Assembly (NCBI GenBank): GCA_030599585.1
Contig: JAUVNS010000003.1
Span: 192,001 to 256,000 of the forward strand
From: Promethearchaeota archaeon
GTDB lineage: Archaea; Asgardarchaeota; Lokiarchaeia; Sigyniarchaeales; SOKP01
DNA length: 64,000 bases
Direction: 5' to 3'
Below, piece by piece: positions 34,967-46,081 of this stretch (the first letter of the stretch is position 1; every line of letters begins with the position of its first letter). Below the pieces are notes generated by a model. That model was not told the DNA's origin, made no database searches, and saw nothing but the letters and a program-made list of their open reading frames with translations. The translations under genes were made by a program, and so were the position numbers.

Positions 34967-35770
34967 ATGTCGAAAGAAACTCCCGATAATGTTAAAAATT
35001 CTTTACGCGCAATAGGATTGACCGACTATGAGATCTCTATATATCTCACTTTAATTTCTAAAGGACCTATGGATGCAAGGGAGCTCTCAGATGCATCGGG
35101 TGTTCCCTATTCTCGAATATACAATATTTTAACTCAATTAGAAAAGGAAAAAATGTTCATTCTCAGAGAAGAAAATACTCGTCCGTCGACTTATTTTGCA
35201 AAGAGTCCTGATGAAGTGCTAATTATTGCAAAGAAACAACTTAACGATAATTTTGATAAACACTCAAACAAAATCATCCACATGCTCAAACCTGTTTACG
35301 AATCTCATGACACTCCCATAAAAATTGCTTTATATGTTCACCGAGGACGTGACGTATGTATCGGTCGTAGTATAGATTTAATCCATCGGGCTAAGAATTC
35401 TCTTTACTTCGTTGCTCCCTATTATGAATTTTTGGAAGTATTTTATGAAGATGTTAAAAAAGCAAGAGCTAGAGGGGTTATTGATATAAAAATGCTTATT
35501 GAAGAAGAAGCAATGAAAGAAAAAAATTTTAGAGACATAATCGAAAAATATAGCGAAATCTCTGAAATTCGCTCTCGCAATCAAGTATTTGGAGCAAGCG
35601 TAGTAATGGATGAAGGAGAAGACGCTTTTATTATACTGACACAAGGTTTTTTCAAAGCATTAAGCTATTTCGGTGTAGCTACTGATCATATCGCCTTTGG
35701 ACCCGCAAGCAACTTTTATTTCGACTATTTATATAAATCAGCAAAACCACTTAAAAATACGAAGAAATAA
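34967..35770 (+). CDS. trmB: TrmB family transcriptional regulator
   Basis: GLTDYE..IY..L..GP..A.ELS..SGVPYSRIY. Confidence 0.93.
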   Translation: MSKETPDNVKNSLRAIGLTDYEISIYLTLISKGPMDARELSDASGVPYSRIYNILTQLEKEKMFILREENTRPSTYFAKSPDEVLIIAKKQLNDNFDKHSNKIIHMLKPVYESHDTPIKIALYVHRGRDVCIGRSIDLIHRAKNSLYFVAPYYEFLEVFYEDVKKARARGVIDIKMLIEEEAMKEKNFRDIIEKYSEISEIRSRNQVFGASVVMDEGEDAFIILTQGFFKALSYFGVATDHIAFGPASNFYFDYLYKSAKPLKNTKK

Positions 35771-35795: not shown

Positions 35796-37805
35796 TTAAT
35801 TCTCTTTTCCGTTAAAAACAGGGATAATTATATGTGATGGGTGATCCTTATCGTGATATATTGTTTGGGTGGCGATTTGGTATTTCATTTGATTTTTTTT
35901 CCCAGCAAGATTAGAATTAACATCAAATCTTGGAAAATTACTTGAAGTAATCTCTAACCGTATTTTATGATTCTTTGGAAAGAAAATAGCAATGGATCCG
36001 ATTACAATTTCGAATTTATAAATCTTATTAGGGTTAACTAATTCAGGTGCGTCCAAATTACCGCTACGATAACGTGTTCTAATTCCAGAGTCAATTAAAT
36101 TTATAGATTTTTTATTGTTTGGGTAAACATCGACTAATTTAACCATAAAATCAGTATCTTCTACGGTAGTTGAAGCGTAAAATATTATTTTTACCTCTCC
36201 AATTATTTCCAAACCTTTTTCAAGGGCATTAGTGGTGAAAATTAGAATATCTTCACCTCTTTCAATATCAGTCTGATCTTGAGGGCCACTCAATAAGAAT
36301 AAATTTCTTCCCCCTTTAGTAATCACTGGATTGGAAGGGTCAAATAGGTATTGATCTGGTGGTTCTTCTTTAGGTCTGTTTTTAGAAAGAAAACCATCTC
36401 CGTTTAAGCTATTACTCTTTCCATTTGAGTGAAGAAATAACTTTACATCAGTTGAAGTCGGAGGCCATTTATAGAATTCTCTCCAAATATCCTTGTTTAA
36501 TATATATATCTGTAATGGAGGAATTTCAGATAAAAGCGATTGGTCCCCTTTTAAACAACAATCGTACCACCAGAAAGGGAGGATTTTTTGGAAGAACCTA
36601 AAATCGTCTTTTAAATGAGTATATTTCAATGGCTTTGAAAAAAACTTATCCATATTTATATGACTCCACGGGCCAATAATCATTTTAAACTTTTCTCTGA
36701 AAAAATCTGGAGCGTTTTGTTGTATTAACACAACATCTCGCATCATGTGCTCAATGAACATGTCATACCACCCCCCTATAAATAACATGGGTGTCTTTAA
36801 TTCATAGTTGAGTCCAAAAGCGTATGGAGATAGGTCGTAGTTGTGAAAGATATTCCTTTTATAGAACATTTCCTTTATCAGTTTTGTAAACGATCCATCA
36901 TCCATCCTTGAAACATCGACATCTGTTTTATACACTCTATTCATCATTTTAATCGAGTATTTGGGCTTATCGAAATTTGCCATATCTGACAACTTTGGCT
37001 TTTTAGAGTCTAAAGGTTCGTTATAAAAACTATTAGAAGGATTGAAAAAGAGTTGTTTGTAGTATCCATCCTTATCCCATTTGTCAAAATCCATCGTGGT
37101 TAATTTTTTCATTTTCGCAGTAGAAATCATTATTAAATATATAGCTCCTGATAACCCAACAGGATATAAGCCGCCAGGGTGCCAAAATACATTGGAATAA
37201 GAGCTATGGATAGGATTTAAACAAGCCAGTAAATTATCATTATCCCAAGATACGGCTAGTTGAGTTATTCCTAAATACGATAATCCCCACATTCCTATTT
37301 TCTTATTATACCAAAAGCGACGAGTGATCCATCGTAGTGTTTCGATTCCATCTTGGCGTTCATACATATATAGTGAATTAGTACCATACTTACTTGATTG
37401 CCCGCAGCCTCGAATATCTTGAATCACAGCGACATACCCTTTAGAGGCGATAAAATATCCTAAAATGCTTAGACTATCTTTCCAATAAGGTAGTCTTACT
37501 AGAATAGTCGGCCCCCTTCCTTTTTTTTTGTAAAGTTCTTTAGGTATGTAAATATCTGTGGCTAATTTTCCTCCATCTTCAAGCTCTATCAAAGCTTCTT
37601 TTAGTCTAATAGAACTAGTTTCTGGTAAAAAATTGACATTTTGGAGTCTTTTTGATCGCCCAATTACTTCAAAAATTTTAAATAGTGGAGAATAAATATA
37701 ATCCACAAGAAATGCCATGCGAATAAATATAGAACTTAAAGGGTCTAGAATTGTCGGTAATTTCAAACCGATCTTTATCTCTTTAGGATTAAACTTTCTT
37801 TTCAT
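35796..37805 (-). CDS. CocE/NonD family hydrolase
   Basis: LATDIY.P, QDIRG, GLSYLG nucleophile, GGWYD, IGPWSH, SSNFPRF. Confidence 0.93.
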   Translation of the reverse strand: MKRKFNPKEIKIGLKLPTILDPLSSIFIRMAFLVDYIYSPLFKIFEVIGRSKRLQNVNFLPETSSIRLKEALIELEDGGKLATDIYIPKELYKKKGRGPTILVRLPYWKDSLSILGYFIASKGYVAVIQDIRGCGQSSKYGTNSLYMYERQDGIETLRWITRRFWYNKKIGMWGLSYLGITQLAVSWDNDNLLACLNPIHSSYSNVFWHPGGLYPVGLSGAIYLIMISTAKMKKLTTMDFDKWDKDGYYKQLFFNPSNSFYNEPLDSKKPKLSDMANFDKPKYSIKMMNRVYKTDVDVSRMDDGSFTKLIKEMFYKRNIFHNYDLSPYAFGLNYELKTPMLFIGGWYDMFIEHMMRDVVLIQQNAPDFFREKFKMIIGPWSHINMDKFFSKPLKYTHLKDDFRFFQKILPFWWYDCCLKGDQSLLSEIPPLQIYILNKDIWREFYKWPPTSTDVKLFLHSNGKSNSLNGDGFLSKNRPKEEPPDQYLFDPSNPVITKGGRNLFLLSGPQDQTDIERGEDILIFTTNALEKGLEIIGEVKIIFYASTTVEDTDFMVKLVDVYPNNKKSINLIDSGIRTRYRSGNLDAPELVNPNKIYKFEIVIGSIAIFFPKNHKIRLEITSSNFPRFDVNSNLAGKKNQMKYQIATQTIYHDKDHPSHIIIPVFNGKEN

Positions 37806-37849
37806 ACTCTAGAATGAATATAAATTTAAAGATTTTTGAATTTAACTGT

Positions 37850-38128
37850 TTACCATGTAATTGTAATTGCTTTTTCGGGGCAAACTTCGACACATTTAAA
37901 ACAACGACTGCAGAGTGAGCCCCAAATAGGCGTGATTCTCCAATCTTGAGGATCATACATATCTTTTTGCTTCTTCTCAGTACCTAACGTTTCGTGCATA
38001 ATAAATACCGCTGGATCACACGCTCTCATACACAAACCGCAGTTTCTGGGATCAATTTTTCCTTTTTCCCCACAAATAGAATACTCTATTTTTATCCTAG
38101 TTCTTTTCTTTTTCTTTGCTTTGCTCAT
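37850..38128 (-). CDS. ferredoxin, 2x[4Fe-4S]-type with insertions
   Basis: C..(insert)..CGLCMRAC and CSRCFKCVEVCP. Confidence 0.85.
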   Translation of the reverse strand: MSKAKKKKRTRIKIEYSICGEKGKIDPRNCGLCMRACDPAVFIMHETLGTEKKQKDMYDPQDWRITPIWGSLCSRCFKCVEVCPEKAITITW

Positions 38129-38136
38129 ATAATCAC

Positions 38137-39006
38137 CTAATAGGTTCCATCAAATCCCGGATATTCTTCTCTGGGAATTAATTTTAATGCATCATGTTTA
38201 CAAGCGTGACGGCAAACACCGCATCCATAACATTTATTATAGTCGATTATAACTCTATCCATTGAAGGAATAAACCGAATAGCGCTTAATTGACATGTGG
38301 CAACGCATGATTTACATCCTTGGCATTTATCCTGATCCAATTGAATAATATATTCCGCTTTATACATCACATTTATATCGAAATTGTTGCGTAATGTAAA
38401 CGCTCCACATTCAGGACTCTCACAAGAGCAAACTGCATTTATATACGGTATTGGTTGGAACCAAACGCTTGAAATGTAACCCTTTTTATTGAATTCTTCC
38501 AATTTTTCAATTGCAGTCTCTCGGTCAATCCTTACTACTCTGTCTTTCGGTATGAAGCGAGGTAATTTTTCGAGGACCTCTGACAAAACCCCAAAGTTTA
38601 TGCAGACAGCTTCCTTCTTTTTTCTCTGCATCCAACGACACATACAATAATTACATATTATAGGCTCAGCCGCAAGTTCTGACATAATAATTTGAGCATC
38701 CTCTAAGGGTATTACTTGACCAAAATGGCCATCAGCCCTTACGGGATTTCTCCTTTTTTTCTGGCTGTGAATCATGTTTTCAGCCCTCCAGCGAAGAACT
38801 TTCCCAATAATCGGCATCTTCAACTTATACCCGAGATCTTTAGAAGAAAAACCCATTATTTTTCTAATATAGACTTGCTCAAAATTCATCCATTGCTCTG
38901 TCAAGTAATCTTTCATGTTACTTTCTTCAGCAAGCTCATTGGAGTAATTTCTGGCATTCATATACCATTTTTTACCCGCTCCGTGAGACATACACCACTG
39001 GCACAT
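38137..39006 (-). CDS. 4Fe-4S dicluster protein with Cys-rich N-terminal domain
   Basis: MCQWC, CMCR, CSC..C, CQGCKSCVATC, CYGCGVCRHAC. Confidence 0.85.
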   Translation of the reverse strand: MCQWCMSHGAGKKWYMNARNYSNELAEESNMKDYLTEQWMNFEQVYIRKIMGFSSKDLGYKLKMPIIGKVLRWRAENMIHSQKKRRNPVRADGHFGQVIPLEDAQIIMSELAAEPIICNYCMCRWMQRKKKEAVCINFGVLSEVLEKLPRFIPKDRVVRIDRETAIEKLEEFNKKGYISSVWFQPIPYINAVCSCESPECGAFTLRNNFDINVMYKAEYIIQLDQDKCQGCKSCVATCQLSAIRFIPSMDRVIIDYNKCYGCGVCRHACKHDALKLIPREEYPGFDGTY

Positions 39007-39159
39007 AAATTAATCCCTTTTTATCTTTAATTTTATTTCCTAATTCTATTAATAAAAATTTGGCTTTTTACTTTATAAAGCTATTTCTTTGCTATTTTTT
39101 AACACAAATGGAAGCCTAAAATAAAATTGATTTATTCTTTGCTTGTTTTTAATTATACA

Positions 39160-40089
39160 TTAAATTGATTTGAATGTTCTCAGGTGTTCCATCATTCCTA
39201 CACCAATTTCACCAGTATTTAAATCTTGAACAATAGCCATTTGTTCAAATAATTCCGTATATCCTCCAGAGAAATTTCGAGCAAACCGAATAAAAGAATT
39301 TTCTCCGAACCGCTTTGCTTTTATGGTATGATTTGCTCCGGAAATATCTTCAAATACATATGCCGTAGAGAGAGGGCTTTTAAATGAGTCTGTGTCGTAT
39401 ATTGTATCGATGTCTAATTTGGATAGTTCTACATTTCCCTTTGTATTCGATATATGACCTGATAAATCTATTTTTTCATTAGCATAATCTTTTCGGAAAG
39501 CACAAGACCAATTTTTAAATTGGAAATGACCAGCATACCATTTATCAAACTGATGCCAATCTCGGAATCCCCAACTTTTATCGCGCTGTCCAAATCCATT
39601 CAAATTTATGATTTCTCCATTTTGCTTAATAAGTTTTCCAGTTACTATTCCCGATGACTCAAAATGCTGATGCCAAGATTTAGAAGAATCCATACCAAAA
39701 TTGTAGGTTGGAAATCTCGTCTTAAAATGTAATTCAAGGCTTAGTTTTCGCGATTTGTAATTTATTATCCATTCCTCAAATGGTTTAACTAGCGTGTACG
39801 AGAGCCTATTCTCACGTAACATAACATTTAAGTCGTCGCTATAATCCTGCAGGTGGGGTTCCTTATAGTACACTTCATTCCGATCTTTTAAGAATAAAAG
39901 AAATACGAATTCTCTTTTTTTTTCATTCGGAACAATCCCAATTGTTGAAAATCCTGAAATTTTATTTTCCAAATCTGCCCAATTAAAATAGTAAGATTCC
40001 CGCCATTTTAATTCGTTAGTTGGTTGATGTAGTAGTTCATCACGATTATCTAAATCAGGGGGTAGGCTATTTTTGCCCATACCATTCAT
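39160..40089 (-). CDS. AttH/tocopherol-cyclase/CrtC-like beta-barrel protein
   Basis: WRESYYF, HFE, GFGQRDKSWGFRDW. Confidence 0.65.
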   Translation of the reverse strand: MNGMGKNSLPPDLDNRDELLHQPTNELKWRESYYFNWADLENKISGFSTIGIVPNEKKREFVFLLFLKDRNEVYYKEPHLQDYSDDLNVMLRENRLSYTLVKPFEEWIINYKSRKLSLELHFKTRFPTYNFGMDSSKSWHQHFESSGIVTGKLIKQNGEIINLNGFGQRDKSWGFRDWHQFDKWYAGHFQFKNWSCAFRKDYANEKIDLSGHISNTKGNVELSKLDIDTIYDTDSFKSPLSTAYVFEDISGANHTIKAKRFGENSFIRFARNFSGGYTELFEQMAIVQDLNTGEIGVGMMEHLRTFKSI

Positions 40090-41243
40090 TCCTCAGGGAG
40101 TAAATATAGCGATGGACCTTCTTTTCTTTTCTTAGATTTACTCCGAAAAAGTCTAGGGATACCCGGATCAAAATCGCTCTCCATAAACATTGGTACGTAA
40201 GTATTCATCGTTTTCTCCGTAAGATCCCAATTTATATCACTAGTAATTCCCACAAAATTAGTATATCTCGCATATCCATAACAGTATGCGTATGCTCCAG
40301 CAATTAACCTTTGTTTTCTATCCCATTTCGAAAACTTCAAAAATAATTCTTTATTTGCTCTTTCCGAATAGTCTTTAAAAGATTCTAAAATGTCTAAATC
40401 AAGATTTTTAACTTTTTCCCCACTACGAGTAAAGAGGGAGACACCTGTAATATTGTTCGTAAAATCTTGAGGAATTGTTTCAAGAGTGGCAAAATCGTCG
40501 AAATTGATATCTACATCTTTCAATCGGAAAGCAAATGCAATATTGTTAAAAGGTGCTTTAGCATTGGTTTCAGACCAGGGAAAATGAGGCATGCCACCAT
40601 CGTAAAGATGTGAAATCTCTCTAAAAACTAAACTTTCGTTATCATTAATTTTATATGGTCCATGATCACATATCTTTGCCCTTGCTTCACATTCGTCCAG
40701 AAAAGAAACAACCTCAAGATTAGCTACAGTTCTTTTTAATTTGATCACTTCTTCTTTAGAAAGGTCTACGATATTATTTAAGGCTTGATTAACAGTAGAA
40801 TGATCCAAAACCATGTTCTTTTTGTTAGAATCATAAACCGATATTTTACAATCCCTGAAATAAGAAGTGGCTAACCTTTTCCAGAAATCTAATACAAATA
40901 AGGTTTGGTTTCTTTTCTCTAGACTTTCACTTTTAGAATCACCCCCGTTCCTTTGAATTTCTCCCATTCTTCCAATCATATAGTACAACGGAATATAAAA
41001 AATACTTAGAGCATTAATTTCAGACAAGATCTTTCGACTTTCCCGCCCCATAATTTCAGGAGTTGTTTTTTCAGAGATTTTTTTCAAAATATCATATAAC
41101 ATATCGTAAGCGTTATAAAACGATACGCAAATATAAGCAGTTACGGGGAAAAGCTGTGTCTCTAAAAGACCTCGTCTTGATACTTGGTAATCGACTAGCT
41201 CGGAAGCATGAGCTATTAATTCGTTTGCTTCTTTTACGTCCAT
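40086..41243 (-). CDS. hypothetical protein, candidate substrate-binding partner of the split dikinase
   Basis: 385-aa ORF overlapping the next gene by ATGA; FLDECEAR..ICDHGPY, FPWSE motifs. Confidence 0.6.
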   Translation of the reverse strand: MDVKEANELIAHASELVDYQVSRRGLLETQLFPVTAYICVSFYNAYDMLYDILKKISEKTTPEIMGRESRKILSEINALSIFYIPLYYMIGRMGEIQRNGGDSKSESLEKRNQTLFVLDFWKRLATSYFRDCKISVYDSNKKNMVLDHSTVNQALNNIVDLSKEEVIKLKRTVANLEVVSFLDECEARAKICDHGPYKINDNESLVFREISHLYDGGMPHFPWSETNAKAPFNNIAFAFRLKDVDINFDDFATLETIPQDFTNNITGVSLFTRSGEKVKNLDLDILESFKDYSERANKELFLKFSKWDRKQRLIAGAYAYCYGYARYTNFVGITSDINWDLTEKTMNTYVPMFMESDFDPGIPRLFRSKSKKRKEGPSLYLLPEE

Positions 41244-41405
41244 AAGTTAATCCTTCAAAATCTTTCCTTTTATATTTAATTTTAAACTTAATTCTATTTA
41301 AATCTATGAAATTGTTTTAAGTTTTTTAAATACATTTAATTACAATATTTAAGATTTTGATATATTGAACACTAAGAAAGAAATTACCCCGCGGGAATTA
41401 TTTAT

Positions 41406-41762
41406 ATGAGAAAAGTTGGTGAAGGCTTGTCATGCTCATCTAAATCAGAGGTTACAGGGAATCTCGTTCATGTTACTAAGATTGAAGACGTGATCGATCT
41501 GTTTGATAAAGCAAAAGGAAAAATATGTTTAGTACACGATGCAGGAATAACAACGTTAGGACCAATTTTATCAGATCTAGCAGGAACTATTTGTACTACG
41601 GGTGGTGCTGGTTCCCACCTAGCTATTATCTCGAGAGAGTTTGGAATCCCTTGCATCATGGGAATTAAAATCTCTACTAACGAGATACCATTACTAATTG
41701 ATAAAAAAGTAAAAATTACACACGATGGAGAAGATAAGGGTTTTTTATATATTGAGGATTAA
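41406..41762 (+). CDS. standalone PEP-utilising mobile (phospho-His swivel) domain
   Basis: GGAGSHLAIISREFGIPCIMG. Confidence 0.9.
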   Translation: MRKVGEGLSCSSKSEVTGNLVHVTKIEDVIDLFDKAKGKICLVHDAGITTLGPILSDLAGTICTTGGAGSHLAIISREFGIPCIMGIKISTNEIPLLIDKKVKITHDGEDKGFLYIED

Positions 41763-41801
41763 GTCCTTGGTTAATACTAAGAAAATTTTCGCAATCACAT
41801 T

Positions 41802-42779
41802 ATGACTTATATCACAAGTTTAAAAGAAGGCAAAGAAGATACTCAACTTTTTGGAGGGAAAGCATCTAACCTTTTTACATTACTTAAAAATGAGATTAAT
41901 GTCCCTCCCGGGTACGCTATAAATACTAAAGCTTACACATTGTTCCTCGAAGAATCTCACATTAAATCTTTCATTGAAGAAATTTTTGTAGAAGAGTATA
42001 GCCCAAAAGAAGTAATTGAAATTTCAACTAAGATCAAGAATTTATTCTTAACTTCTGAAATACCATCAAATATAATCTCAGAGATACAACAAAATCATAT
42101 CAAAGAATTTTCAGATAACGACGAGCATACATCTTATGTAGTTAGATCGTCGGCTAATTATGAGGACTCAAGTAGTTTTTCGTTCGCTGGACAAGCTCAA
42201 TCGTTTCTTAATATCAGAAGCATCTCAGAAATCATTTTATCGATAAAAATGTGTTGGGCTTCTTTATTTTCTCCTCAAATTCTATTATATCTTTTACAAT
42301 TAAACAAAAAGGGATTTAATATTACTCCTTTGAATTTAGAAATGGCGATTGTAGTTCAAAAAATGTTAAAGCCCCAAGTTTCAGGCGTATTATTCACTGC
42401 AAATGTAATCAACAACGATAAAGACCAAATGATGATTAATTCTACTTGGGGTCTTGGTGAAACAATCACCAACAACACAATTATTCCCGATTTGATAATA
42501 GTGAAAAAAGATAATTGCGATATAGTGAAAATTGCAATTGGAGAAAAAGGGAAAACATCTATTGCGAATCCAAAAGGCGATTCTACTATTCTTATTGACA
42601 CTGAACAGGAAATTCAGGAATTATGTTCTCTAAATCCATCACAACTTAGGCAACTTCATACTTTGGGCTTAAAGTTGGAAGAGCTTTTTAAATATCCTCA
42701 AGATATTGAATGGGCAATAGAAAACAACATATTATTCGCTTTACAGTCGCGACCTATCACAACGCTACCAAAAAATTAA
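41802..42779 (+). CDS. standalone PEP-synthase/PPDK N-terminal ATP-grasp domain
   Basis: GGKASNL, VPPG, VRSSA..ED..SFAGQ, SGVLFT, WGLGE, PQDIEW, LQSRPIT, then stop. Confidence 0.93.
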   Translation: MTYITSLKEGKEDTQLFGGKASNLFTLLKNEINVPPGYAINTKAYTLFLEESHIKSFIEEIFVEEYSPKEVIEISTKIKNLFLTSEIPSNIISEIQQNHIKEFSDNDEHTSYVVRSSANYEDSSSFSFAGQAQSFLNIRSISEIILSIKMCWASLFSPQILLYLLQLNKKGFNITPLNLEMAIVVQKMLKPQVSGVLFTANVINNDKDQMMINSTWGLGETITNNTIIPDLIIVKKDNCDIVKIAIGEKGKTSIANPKGDSTILIDTEQEIQELCSLNPSQLRQLHTLGLKLEELFKYPQDIEWAIENNILFALQSRPITTLPKN

Positions 42780-42833: not shown

Positions 42834-43292
42834 TTATTTGAGAAATGCTCTCTTTCCTAAATAAATAAAAAGTTCTCCTAATTCAAAAACGGTTAGTGGA
42901 AAGATTAAATTTGCCATAGCATGACGTAAATCCTGCTTATCTTTACCAGCGACCATTAGTTTCTCAATATCTTCAACGTAATCATCCATATTCATGAATA
43001 ATATCTCAATTTTATCGCAACCAGTTAATTCCTCTATATCTTTATCCAAATGCGTTTCAACCTGGTTTAAAAGTCCTAATTTTAACTTTGGTTCTAACTC
43101 ATATTTGGATATGATTTCATTGATCTCTTCAAGAATTATATTTATGGTTAAGTTCCAATCTTTATTATCCTTATATTTGGGAATTAATACTTCGCTAATT
43201 ATTATTTCAAAAAGAGTTTGGGGTGCTTTATCGTCAAATTCTACCTCTGAACCATTCCTTAATTTTATTGTTTTAACCATTTCCAACCTCAA
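42834..43292 (-). CDS. hypothetical protein
   Basis: 152-aa ORF with ordinary composition. Confidence 0.65.
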   Translation of the reverse strand: MRLEMVKTIKLRNGSEVEFDDKAPQTLFEIIISEVLIPKYKDNKDWNLTINIILEEINEIISKYELEPKLKLGLLNQVETHLDKDIEELTGCDKIEILFMNMDDYVEDIEKLMVAGKDKQDLRHAMANLIFPLTVFELGELFIYLGKRAFLK

Positions 43293-43578: not shown

Positions 43579-44364
43579 GTGTGGCGAATAATGGAATTTA
43601 AAAAAATTTTGATTACTAATTTTGTTAAGAAATCTCTTGAAACCTATATCATAGATTTGGAATTTAAGAATGAAATAGGTAAAATCAAAATTGGTACTCT
43701 TGCGAGTTTAAGTCAAGAGCTTGTACAAGGTAGATTTTATGATGAGGAACCAGAATTACTATTATTACCTAGACCTGGTGTGTCCTTTCAATTAGGATTA
43801 GGCCCACTTACATTCAATGATACTAGTACTAAAAATCAACTCCAAGTTGGAAGTAATTTTCTTAAAATTATATTAAAAAGATATGAGAAGTGGGGTACGG
43901 AATATAATAAGATCAAGGAAATTTTTCAGCTCTTATATCCAATTTTAGAAGATATCACTATTAAAGGCTTTCAAATTGCTTGTATAAATAAATTTGATGA
44001 TATTAGAAGAGAGGAGGGGTTTCTTTTAAGTAATTTTTTTACACATTCTGTTGAATCCGATTTAAAAATAGAGTATGAAGATTTTCACCTAGGATTTGTC
44101 CCTCACCAATTAAAGAGAGATGATGAGATTGAAAAGATTGTTCTTAAATTACGCGGTAATCCTCCGAAAGACTCTGATTTCTTTCTTTTTAAGCTAGAGA
44201 GCCTTTTTTTTAAACGGAACTTAAATGTTAAGTTTTCTGATCCGAAATTGCTTAGTAGTATTAATTATGGGCATGATTTTCTAAATTATTTATTCGTAAA
44301 TTCCTTGAGTGATATTTATCGCAAAAGAATTGGATTATCTTTTGAATATTTAGAAGAAGGTTAA
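43579..44364 (+). CDS. TIGR04255-like protein
   Basis: pattern LE.YII.LEF / F...LQV...L.....Y..W / F.I..IN.F / H..L..LF...LS matches my recollection of the family. Confidence 0.6.
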   Translation: MWRIMEFKKILITNFVKKSLETYIIDLEFKNEIGKIKIGTLASLSQELVQGRFYDEEPELLLLPRPGVSFQLGLGPLTFNDTSTKNQLQVGSNFLKIILKRYEKWGTEYNKIKEIFQLLYPILEDITIKGFQIACINKFDDIRREEGFLLSNFFTHSVESDLKIEYEDFHLGFVPHQLKRDDEIEKIVLKLRGNPPKDSDFFLFKLESLFFKRNLNVKFSDPKLLSSINYGHDFLNYLFVNSLSDIYRKRIGLSFEYLEEG

Positions 44365-44382
44365 AAATGAAGGAATAATATT

Positions 44383-44916
44383 ATGGAAAGGATCGACACA
44401 ACACCTGATGAAAATTCAGAAACAGGTGAAATCAAAGAAGAGATATCAAAAAAACCATTAAATACTATAATTGAAAAAGTAACTACAGACTTTTTGGAAA
44501 GTGATAAAGATTTAGAGATTTCCGAAATTTTTAGCAGATTTATTTTAGAATTTATTGGACGAGATATATTTAATGATCCAGAATCCAATTTCAAGTTATA
44601 TGATATATTTGAACAATTTAATCAATCACTAATCAAACCACGATCAACCATAAAAGTTCCTCCAGATACCCCTCCAACAAAACCAATCCACTTTGAGGTA
44701 GATGCTAGTTTGATTGAAGAAATGATAAGAAGAGCTATTAAGGATTCAAAGATCTTTAATTTTATTCATTCATCTAAATGGAATGAGCTTAGAGTAGAAT
44801 TTTGTAAAAAAGATGAAATAAATTATCGTTGTATTGAGTCATTAGAAAAATTGATTATGTTTCTAAATCTGATGCAATTAAAAATGGAAAAATATGAATT
44901 AAAACAAGGATGGTAA
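44383..44916 (+). CDS. hypothetical protein, middle gene of three-gene cassette
   Basis: acidic N-terminus, central PPDTPP linker; 18 bp and 4 bp gaps to neighbours. Confidence 0.65.
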   Translation: MERIDTTPDENSETGEIKEEISKKPLNTIIEKVTTDFLESDKDLEISEIFSRFILEFIGRDIFNDPESNFKLYDIFEQFNQSLIKPRSTIKVPPDTPPTKPIHFEVDASLIEEMIRRAIKDSKIFNFIHSSKWNELRVEFCKKDEINYRCIESLEKLIMFLNLMQLKMEKYELKQGW

Positions 44917-44920
44917 GACC

Positions 44921-46081
44921 TTGGAAGAAAAAAAAACAATTTTAGCTTACAATTGCCAAAAGGAAATAAATATAAAAGAAATTCAACAGGGTGATGTTTT
45001 TAAAAATATTCCTTTTTACTCTCCTGATTTTTTATTAAAATCATCAATAAATGAGATTAATATAAAAATTGACAACGATGTAGAATCCATTTTTGAGGAA
45101 ATAATTAAAAAAGGCAATGTTATAAACGCAAAAAGTATCATATTTCCAACATGGGCAATTTTGGGGAGCCAAGAATGTGATATCCGTGGAGGATATGATC
45201 TCATTTTTTTTCCTTTAGTAAAATATACAGAGATAGAAAAACAAGATGAGTTTGTTAAATTTATTGAAAAGGATATCCAAGGATGGACAAGATTCATGTA
45301 TGTTCCTAAAAGTGATTTAGCAGATAATAGATTTGGACCTTTTCGAGTTTTATTACAGAATCCTTTTTATATCTCTTATGAAATTATTGAAAAGAATCTT
45401 AAACATTGTTGGGCAACGCATATAGTTGAAAAGGCAAGAAGAGTCTTTGTGGGGAAAATAATAAATCTTTTCACAAGAACACCGGTTGATGAGTTAGTTT
45501 TTATAGAATTTAATCAGATCGAAAATTATTTTCAAAAAAAATGGCAAAAGGCATGGAATAAACAAAAAACTAATCCTTATGATAAATCTGCTGATGATAT
45601 AATTGAAAAAATAATGGATTTTTATTTTTTACTCAAACATGAGAATGAACAGGTTAAATTTCAAGAATTTAAAATTCTGCCACTCAATTTGCTAGATGAA
45701 ATCATTAAATTAACTGATAAATCTTGGATTTTCATTGAAGAGAATCCATTTATTTCATTTTATGAACAATTAAAAGAAGATAAGACGCTTAATTGGTTTA
45801 TAAGATTCTATAATTTCATTGATAAAACGATTTATGGTGAAGATTCAATTTTTAAGACAATAAAAGATCGTTTAATTTTAATTCAACAGTTTGAAAGTGA
45901 GGAAGATAAGGAATTTCTTAATTATAAAGAAAAAAATATTAGAGAAGATTATCACGAATTCCCTAAAAATATATTATATTCGAGGTTAGAATCACCTACA
46001 CTTCAAGAAGAGAAATTTTTATCTTATTGCAAGCCATTTGAGAAACTTAGGGGATTTTTATCTGAAATAGGAATACTTTAA
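44921..46081 (+). CDS. hypothetical protein with N-terminal QGD..SQxCD domain (possible PemK/MazF-like)
   Basis: IQQGDVF..., AILGSQECDI..LIFFPL. Confidence 0.5.
   Translation: MEEKKTILAYNCQKEINIKEIQQGDVFKNIPFYSPDFLLKSSINEINIKIDNDVESIFEEIIKKGNVINAKSIIFPTWAILGSQECDIRGGYDLIFFPLVKYTEIEKQDEFVKFIEKDIQGWTRFMYVPKSDLADNRFGPFRVLLQNPFYISYEIIEKNLKHCWATHIVEKARRVFVGKIINLFTRTPVDELVFIEFNQIENYFQKKWQKAWNKQKTNPYDKSADDIIEKIMDFYFLLKHENEQVKFQEFKILPLNLLDEIIKLTDKSWIFIEENPFISFYEQLKEDKTLNWFIRFYNFIDKTIYGEDSIFKTIKDRLILIQQFESEEDKEFLNYKEKNIREDYHEFPKNILYSRLESPTLQEEKFLSYCKPFEKLRGFLSEIGIL

Follow-up and report, generated by a model that had tools for sequence, protein, structure and literature searches.

A 64,000-nucleotide stretch of a Promethearchaeota archaeon genome (contig JAUVNS010000003.1, positions 192,001 to 256,000 of the forward strand; hereafter referred to as the window) encodes a split dikinase-type phosphotransferase, in AT-rich DNA of about 32% G+C. 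Four of its genes, encoding an ATP-grasp subunit, a stand-alone phospho-histidine swivel, a protein of 385 amino acids (hereafter U385) and a DUF7065-family protein, probably form one cassette for the ATP-driven dehydration of an alcohol, a reading to which I assign a probability of roughly 0.6. It builds on the identity of the domains, on the linkage of the genes, on natural gene fusions and on the homology of one component to a known lyase. An initial annotation of the sequence had proposed a three-subunit kinase acting on a non-pyruvate substrate. The three-protein relay is retained here, but a four-gene kinase-plus-lyase cassette describes the locus better; what that annotation had observed holds, while its interpretation survives only in part, the supply of substrate by a CocE hydrolase and an obligate redox step finding no support.

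In the proposed scheme, the ATP-grasp subunit would bind ATP and charge His71 of the free swivel, converting ATP to AMP and phosphate; this step is modelled on phosphoenolpyruvate (PEP) synthase and rifampin phosphotransferase (RPH). The phospho-swivel would then dock on U385, which would substitute for the pyruvate barrel or rifampin-binding domain that is usual in such enzymes, and there the phosphate would pass to the hydroxyl of a small molecule, probably lipophilic or linked to coenzyme A (CoA). Finally, the translationally coupled DUF7065 protein would expel the phosphate, leaving a C=C bond, so that the net reaction would be the ATP-driven dehydration of an alcohol that is not directly dehydratable. 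What I infer from the evidence below is which way the phosphoryl group flows, what chemistry the lyase performs and what kind of substrate is used.

All open reading frames (ORFs) of the initial annotation were found where it had placed them (Table 1). The ATP-grasp subunit matches the PPDK_N profile with 247.9 bits (cut-off 27) over positions 2–314 of 328, and its best matches of solved structure are the ATP-grasp domains of PEP synthase and RPH, with E-values of 3e-48 to 4e-42. The swivel scores 42.1 bits against its family profile (cut-off 23.1) and contains the sequence TTGGAGSH, of which S70-H71 is invariant across 18 homologues. As had been noticed at the outset, it does not possess the regulatory Thr found two residues before the His in the GGxTSH motif; archaeal homologues carry a Gly there, and the absence of this Thr is normal for small-molecule dikinases of the RPH type (PMC12167813). 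A PPDK_N ATP-grasp and a catalytic-His G-G-x-x-(S/C)-H loop are features of the swivelling-histidine dikinase superfamily, to which, judged by its sequence, the split system belongs via two of its three domains. No PEP-utilizers_C barrel (PF02896) was found within the window, in agreement with the earlier statement that a pyruvate-binding barrel is missing; the only two in the genome lie inside full-length genes of the PEP synthase (PEPS)/pyruvate phosphate dikinase (PPDK) type, on contigs C20 and C27.

As had been claimed, ATP-grasp and swivel are encoded by two separate, intact genes; separate genes for the two are present in 55 of the 80 loci described below. The stop codon of the swivel gene is 39 nt from the start of the ATP-grasp gene, and both genes have an ATG and a stop codon of their own. 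The order swivel before ATP-grasp is the reverse of that in every single-chain enzyme, and is kept down to about 32–45% identity, while the split itself is conserved at 32–92% identity across Asgard and TACK lineages. A single PEP synthase or dikinase gene could instead have decayed into these two pieces, by the frameshift that was considered from the start or by an assembly artefact. The small size of the swivel ORF is all that speaks for this, and its chance is negligible: the reversed gene order and the conservation of the split across lineages exclude a frameshift, and three intact full-length relatives are present elsewhere in the genome. Annotations of such fragments as 'PEP synthase' are wrong.

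Gene neighbourhoods were compared in 20 loci around U385 homologues from the phylum, and in 80 loci from a scan of species genomes; these 80 come from Asgard and TACK archaea, and genome-level counts refer to the 201 genomes sampled. U385 and DUF7065 are adjacent in every one of the 80 loci, joined by the swivel in 68 and by both swivel and ATP-grasp in 55. U385 is found in 52 of the 201 genomes, and DUF7065 likewise in all 52. The co-occurrence of the 385-residue gene with the swivel and ATP-grasp genes, which the initial annotation had proposed to check, is established. In the window, the DUF7065 gene overlaps that of U385 by 4 nt, so that the junction must read ATGA, the coupling that had been described. 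In Lokiarchaeia, the order is orf152 / ATP-grasp, swivel / U385, DUF7065, FeS, Fd, where orf152 is a small conserved ORF and FeS and Fd are an iron-sulphur protein (FeS289) and a ferredoxin-like protein (Fd92); in Thorarchaeia it is FeS, Fd / ATP-grasp, swivel / U385, DUF7065, and TACK archaea show a further arrangement of the cassette. Since gene order differs among these three groups, the linkage outlasts rearrangement, and the recurrence of the same genes together in 80 loci is far from chance.

The boundaries of the cassette are indicated by six genomes of the same genus in which U385 and DUF7065 are absent, and where the locus consists of orf152, zinc-ribbon membrane ORFs, FeS289, Fd92 and a TrmB-family regulator. 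Because the remainder of the locus stays in place in these cassette-free relatives, the ATP-grasp, swivel, U385 and DUF7065 genes are gained or lost as one block, the presence or absence of which is a clean polymorphism within one genus. At loci L131–L135 (genomes G099, G141, G057, G077 and G109), the four-gene block is absent, and one or two zinc-ribbon membrane ORFs are found instead.

For U385, the candidate acceptor, no Pfam or NCBIfam family was matched, and comparison of its profile to PDB sequences returned noise only (best E-value 0.07). When 1.84 billion representative proteins were searched with its profile, a family of 352 clusters emerged. Its AlphaFold2 model is confident, with a predicted local distance difference test score (pLDDT) of 93.8 and a predicted template modelling score of 0.92, but no solved fold matches it: the best Foldseek E-value against the PDB is 0.35, and the best VIA-align Z-score 2.4, among 48,161 chains; in the ESM Atlas, the best template modelling score is 0.25. 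The idea that U385 is a diverged rifampin-binding domain gained no support: when it was aligned to the rifampin-binding-like central domain of the RPH-type dikinase that this genome encodes, the hhalign probability was 0.7%, and no RPH chain is among the Foldseek, VIA-align and Atlas matches of U385, which does not in itself exclude a fold outside these match lists. Residues N7, R24, R92, R188, G195-P196-Y197, P258 and G316 are kept across the whole superfamily of U385.

Two lines of evidence connect U385 to the swivel. Firstly, natural fusions of an N-terminal swivel to a U385 domain are present in five metagenomic proteins (P0155, P0183, P0240, P0246 and P0276). Secondly, a swivel–U385 complex predicted from family alignments has an interface score (ipSAE) of 0.83, as against 0.00 for the best of three controls; 58 of 80 solved complexes attain the mark for this score, as do 2 of 110 mismatched pairs, although own alignments were used here, and the calibration is therefore only rough. 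Three prediction runs share at least 93% of contacts, with a partner pLDDT of at least 88. In the predicted interface, S70-H71 of the swivel is placed against residues 27–32 and 185–188 of U385 (the RGLLESKLFP and DECEARAK motifs), including R188, and these are the most conserved motifs of the family. As U385 has no match of solved structure, the good score is unlikely to stem from a structure already known to the predictor. U385 is thus predicted to be the binding partner of the swivel, which bears on the suggested AlphaFold test as far as the 385-residue protein is concerned. Two long U385 proteins, P0176 and P0240, have C-terminal extensions that were also considered as fused lyases, and showed no similarity.

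Instead of an enzyme domain, U385 could be a regulator or a protein target that the swivel phosphorylates or gates, in a signalling relay similar to that of the phosphotransferase system (PTS). Swivel domains do also serve PTS Enzyme I, matches to which were seen, and a TrmB-family gene lies at the edge of the locus. However, the invariant R24, R92, R188 and G195-P196-Y197 are typical of an anion-binding catalytic site, U385 resembles substrate domains in being fused to the swivel, bacterial U385 genes lie among enzymes of CoA-ester catabolism, and TrmB is kept where the cassette is missing. Such a relay is thus very improbable.

The remaining component, the DUF7065 protein, provides the link to elimination chemistry. 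A profile of 18 archaeal DUF7065 proteins matches 25-phosphosteroid lyase (25-PSL; PDB 9fzn/9g4c) over residues 15–173, with an E-value of 5.6e-9. Residues R169, D170, S172, W173, G174 and R176, invariant in the 18 homologues, align to the GSRDRSWGVR segment of 25-PSL, defining a shared G-x-RD-x-SWG-x-R motif. In Actinomycetota, a 371-aa gene beside swivel and U385 matches 25-PSL with an E-value of 7e-30, and its product aligns to the archaeal DUF7065 family with an hhalign probability of 94.4%; the corresponding cluster of Baekduia soli and Solirubrobacterales encodes a 371–377-aa protein of this kind, a swivel and U385, together with an enoyl-CoA hydratase and a protein similar to ADP-forming acyl-CoA synthetases. 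By these alignments, DUF7065 is a remote relative of 25-PSL, and its bacterial counterpart a clear one. When Sterolibacterium degrades the side chain of cholesterol anaerobically, 25-hydroxysteroid kinase (25-HSK) phosphorylates a tertiary alcohol and 25-PSL then eliminates the phosphate to yield an alkene, a net ATP-dependent dehydration (PMC7411048, PMC8449060, PMC11061730). The lyase step that had been suggested initially therefore gains support, in a more specific form, from this kinship.

The pairing of kinase and lyase is also found with a different kinase architecture. On contig C4 of the same genome (G000, L130:3687-7399, minus strand), a 906-aa single-chain dikinase of the RPH type (E-value 7e-96 to PDB 5HV1) is followed, 18 nt downstream, by a 324-aa DUF7065+DUF7064 protein, 26% identical to the DUF7065 protein of the window; the ATP-grasp domain of this dikinase and the ATP-grasp subunit of the window are 37% identical. 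Kinase and lyase are thus paired in both architectures, and in one TACK locus such a pairing is likewise found beside the split system. Relatives of the 906-aa dikinase carry 'PEP synthase' in their PDB titles. In addition, in two lineages the gene directly downstream of U385-DUF7065 encodes a phosphoesterase, namely a DSP/PTP-type phosphatase (L017:10411-10869) and a LigD-type 3'-phosphoesterase (L112:11132-11578), which fits a phosphorylated intermediate.

These phosphoesterase genes are also among the arguments for a plain small-molecule kinase, the phosphorylated product of which would be the end point, for inactivation, trapping or activation of a compound, as for RPH or HpeHI. In that case, the DUF7065 protein would act before phosphorylation, as a binding protein, hydratase or cyclase, and not as a phospho-lyase. 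RPH, PpsAB, CreHI and HpeHI all release stable phosphoesters (PMC12167813, PMC4844700), and in an Atlas feature search the DUF7065 family resembles tocopherol-cyclase-like proteins. On the other hand, the one relative of DUF7065 with a solved structure is a lyase that eliminates phosphate, DUF7065 paralogues repeatedly adjoin kinases of differing architecture, including in this genome, and the unbroken adjacency to U385, with the ATGA coupling, indicates that the two share an intermediate. I therefore regard a plain kinase as unlikely.

Several observations weigh against the dehydration cassette. The link between the DUF7065 protein of the window and 25-PSL is remote, visible at the profile level only and confined to roughly the N-terminal 160 residues; searching with the window protein as a single sequence found nothing. 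The phosphatase neighbours could equally mean that a phosphoester product is hydrolysed rather than eliminated, and the binding of swivel to U385 is a prediction, with a confidence that is that of the model. In four loci of close relatives (L041, L042, L043 and L088; about 76% identity), the ATP-grasp gene is absent from its place between orf152 and the swivel gene, while the other genes of the cluster, including CocE, are intact. Of the 80 loci, 12 have no adjacent swivel, and the genomes checked possess a second cluster with one. Where either component is missing, the relay must act in trans or with another donor. Finally, near the lyase-U385 cluster of B. soli (L118, CP042430, 6439-7642), the split pair consists of PEP-utilizers (112 aa) and PEP-utilizers_C (290 aa), not PPDK_N. 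This suggests that a swivel there may be charged by PEP instead of ATP, and means that ATP is not proven as the donor across the family.

These last cases also bear on the direction of phosphoryl flow. A high-energy phosphoester or enol phosphate made elsewhere could pass its phosphate via U385 and the swivel to ATP, so that an anaerobe short of energy would conserve it at the substrate level, or the swivel could be charged from PEP. PPDK-type enzymes are reversible. The reaction catalysed by 25-HSK is likewise fully reversible, because tertiary phosphoesters have a high group-transfer potential (PMC8449060); the split PEP-utilizers_C gene beside the B. soli cluster, and the loci devoid of an ATP-grasp gene, are also compatible with such a flow. 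However, a lyase that destroys the phosphoester would waste its energy, the ATP-grasp and swivel genes are adjacent and in the same orientation in 55 of the 80 loci, and the cassette conserves no enzyme able to make such a phosphoester. Reverse flow is accordingly quite improbable, and flow from ATP to the alcohol is retained in the proposed dehydration.

The closest precedent to this dehydration is the pair formed by 25-HSK and 25-PSL in Sterolibacterium denitrificans (PMC7411048, PMC8449060; PDB 9fzn, 9g2i, 9g4c), which follows the same kinase-then-lyase logic and includes a homologous lyase. However, 25-HSK is a single 40-kDa protein of the phosphotransferase family that converts ATP to ADP, whereas the kinase described here is unrelated to it and would be a three-protein relay of the dikinase type. 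The Sterolibacterium genes are not adjacent (PMC8449060); those of U385 and the lyase are translationally coupled, and their hosts are Asgard archaea. PpsAB, CreHI and HpeHI (PMC12167813) resemble the present system in their stand-alone PPDK_N ATP-grasp, in a swivel His without the regulatory Thr, and in a non-pyruvate acceptor. In these, the swivel is fused to a rifampin-binding-like substrate domain of about 600 aa, while the swivel of the window is free, at 118 aa; the U385 acceptor showed no similarity in sequence or fold to the rifampin-binding-like domain, and the coupling to a lyase is a further difference. RPH (PDB 5HV1, 5FBS; PMC4844700) shares the ATP-grasp and swivel chemistry, but is one chain with the order ATP-grasp, substrate domain, swivel, in contrast to three chains here, with another substrate domain and the swivel gene first. 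Finally, PEP synthase and PPDK are homologous in ATP-grasp and swivel, but the system of the window has neither their PEP-utilizers_C TIM barrel nor the regulatory Thr, and the housekeeping PEPS and PPDK of this genome are those encoded on C20 and C27. A literature search found no paper on U385, on DUF7065 in this context, on a three-part dikinase, or on Lokiarchaeota with phenylphosphate-type kinases.

Table 1. Features of the locus, with positions in the 64,000-nucleotide window.
Feature	Position	Strand	Description
ATP-grasp (PPDK_N) subunit	41802..42779	+	325 aa; PF01326; putative nucleotide-binding phosphoryl donor
Phospho-histidine swivel, stand-alone	41406..41762	+	118 aa; PF00391; GGAGSH, His71 codon at 41616-41618
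Divergent intergenic region, AT-rich	41244..41405	.	162 bp; TATA-like boxes TTTAAATA and TTTATATT in the sequence; candidate promoter
U385	40086..41243	-	385 aa; without Pfam/NCBIfam match; proposed acceptor (substrate) domain
DUF7065-family protein	39160..40089	-	309 aa; PF23213, E-value 1.1e-15; proposed phosphoester (C-O) lyase
FeS289	38137..39006	-	289 aa; Cys-rich N-terminal part and C-terminal 2x[4Fe-4S] ferredoxin domain
Fd92, ferredoxin-like	37850..38128	-	92 aa; Fer4_9 and Fer4_7, E-value about 3e-7; paired with FeS289
CocE/NonD alpha/beta hydrolase	35796..37805	-	669 aa; TIGR00976, 279.8 bits
TrmB-family transcriptional regulator	34967..35770	+	PF01978, E-value 4.5e-17; edge of the Lokiarchaeial locus
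orf152	42834..43292	-	152 aa, conserved; convergent on the ATP-grasp gene; Lokiarchaeia only

The genes around the cassette differ in how closely they follow it. Among the 80 loci, FeS289 is a neighbour in 52, Fd92 after FeS289 in 49, orf152 in 37, TrmB in 26 and CocE in 8. The CocE/NonD protein has an S15 alpha/beta-hydrolase domain and a PepX_C domain (PF02129, E-value 2.6e-31; PF08530, E-value 3.6e-29), and its TIGR00976 score is well above the cut-off of 66.3. It was nevertheless rejected as an integral part of the cassette, since all 8 loci that possess it are from close relatives; it is a lineage-specific insert, and not the supplier of substrate that had been envisaged. The Fe-S pair is similarly weakened as an obligate redox partner, the role implied by the redox step of the initial annotation. 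The FeS289 family occurs in 96 of the 201 genomes, against 52 with U385, and the pair is kept in the six same-genus genomes devoid of kinase and lyase genes. TrmB, orf152 and the FeS289-Fd92 pair persist together where the cassette is missing, and are therefore optional neighbours. The presence of FeS289-Fd92 near the cassette in three gene orders nonetheless hints at a functional tie, of an optional kind. These genes and CocE may feed or follow the reaction, without being obligate.

FeS289 belongs to a family widespread in Asgard archaea, Bathyarchaeia and Korarchaeia. Fer4 families match only its residues 221–278, and six further Cys are invariant; its N-terminal 215 residues contain eight conserved Cys (MCxWC, NYCxC, CINFG, CSCESPEC). 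No Pfam or PDB match was found for the N-terminal domain, its homologues being named as generic ferredoxins only, and the AlphaFold2 model of the protein (pLDDT 50) is unusable. For orf152, with a mean column identity of 81%, no Pfam or PDB match was found. The idea that it is a remnant of a pyruvate barrel was rejected, as HpcH_HpaI, its best match, has an E-value of 0.018 and the PDB profile search was empty. Just past orf152, at 43579-46081 of the window, lies a three-gene TIGR04255-like cassette of 26–28% G+C.

Recurrent neighbours provide hints, and hints only, as to the substrate. An alpha/beta hydrolase is found in 14 Thorarchaeial loci, 8 loci have an AMP-binding CoA ligase, a 2-hydroxyacyl-CoA-dehydratase-like pair is present in one paralogous cluster, and the bacterial context is of the beta-oxidation type. 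Together these suggest an ester-derived acid or a lipid-like alcohol.

Some loci show variant compositions. The paralogous Lokiarchaeial cluster L024:6732-13407 contains ATP-grasp, swivel, a 454-aa variant of U385, DUF7065, an MFS_2 transporter and two HGD-D genes, the latter being 2-hydroxyacyl-CoA dehydratase-like. In Freyarchaeia (L020:12576-17521 and sister loci), two U385 genes, one DUF7065 and a swivel are present with no ATP-grasp, adjoining three tandem B12-binding radical SAM genes. In two Thor-type genomes (G164:C313 and G155:C18), in-frame TGA or TAG codons interrupt otherwise intact matches to DUF7065 and FeS289, both genes being split in G155; these could be sequencing errors, decay or recoding.

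To date, a single case of ATP-dependent dehydration by a kinase and a lyase is documented, namely one step on a sterol side chain in one bacterium. The cluster described here indicates a wide use of this logic, with a different and more modular three-protein phospho-histidine kinase, and systems of the U385 type range over Asgard and TACK archaea and Actinomycetota. With somewhat less than even odds, U385 represents an enzyme fold that is new and, next to the pyruvate barrel and the rifampin-binding domain, another type of acceptor for swivelling-histidine phosphotransferases. With a 25-PSL-like lyase it would constitute a widespread dehydratase of unactivated alcohols that is driven by ATP (to AMP), and these alcohols could be the tertiary alcohols of isoprenoid lipids, or hydroxyacyl-CoA esters. 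The U385 family, with its 352 clusters, confident model and lack of a solved match, is a concrete target for structure determination and for substrate discovery, and the substrate could reveal a new route by which hydroxylated lipids, isoprenoids or acids are handled anaerobically. Models of the origin of eukaryotes take in the lipid and carbon metabolism of Asgard archaea, among which the cassette is common. If the proposed reading is true, dehydration by kinase and lyase would be a general anaerobic strategy, and not the peculiarity of one sterol degrader.

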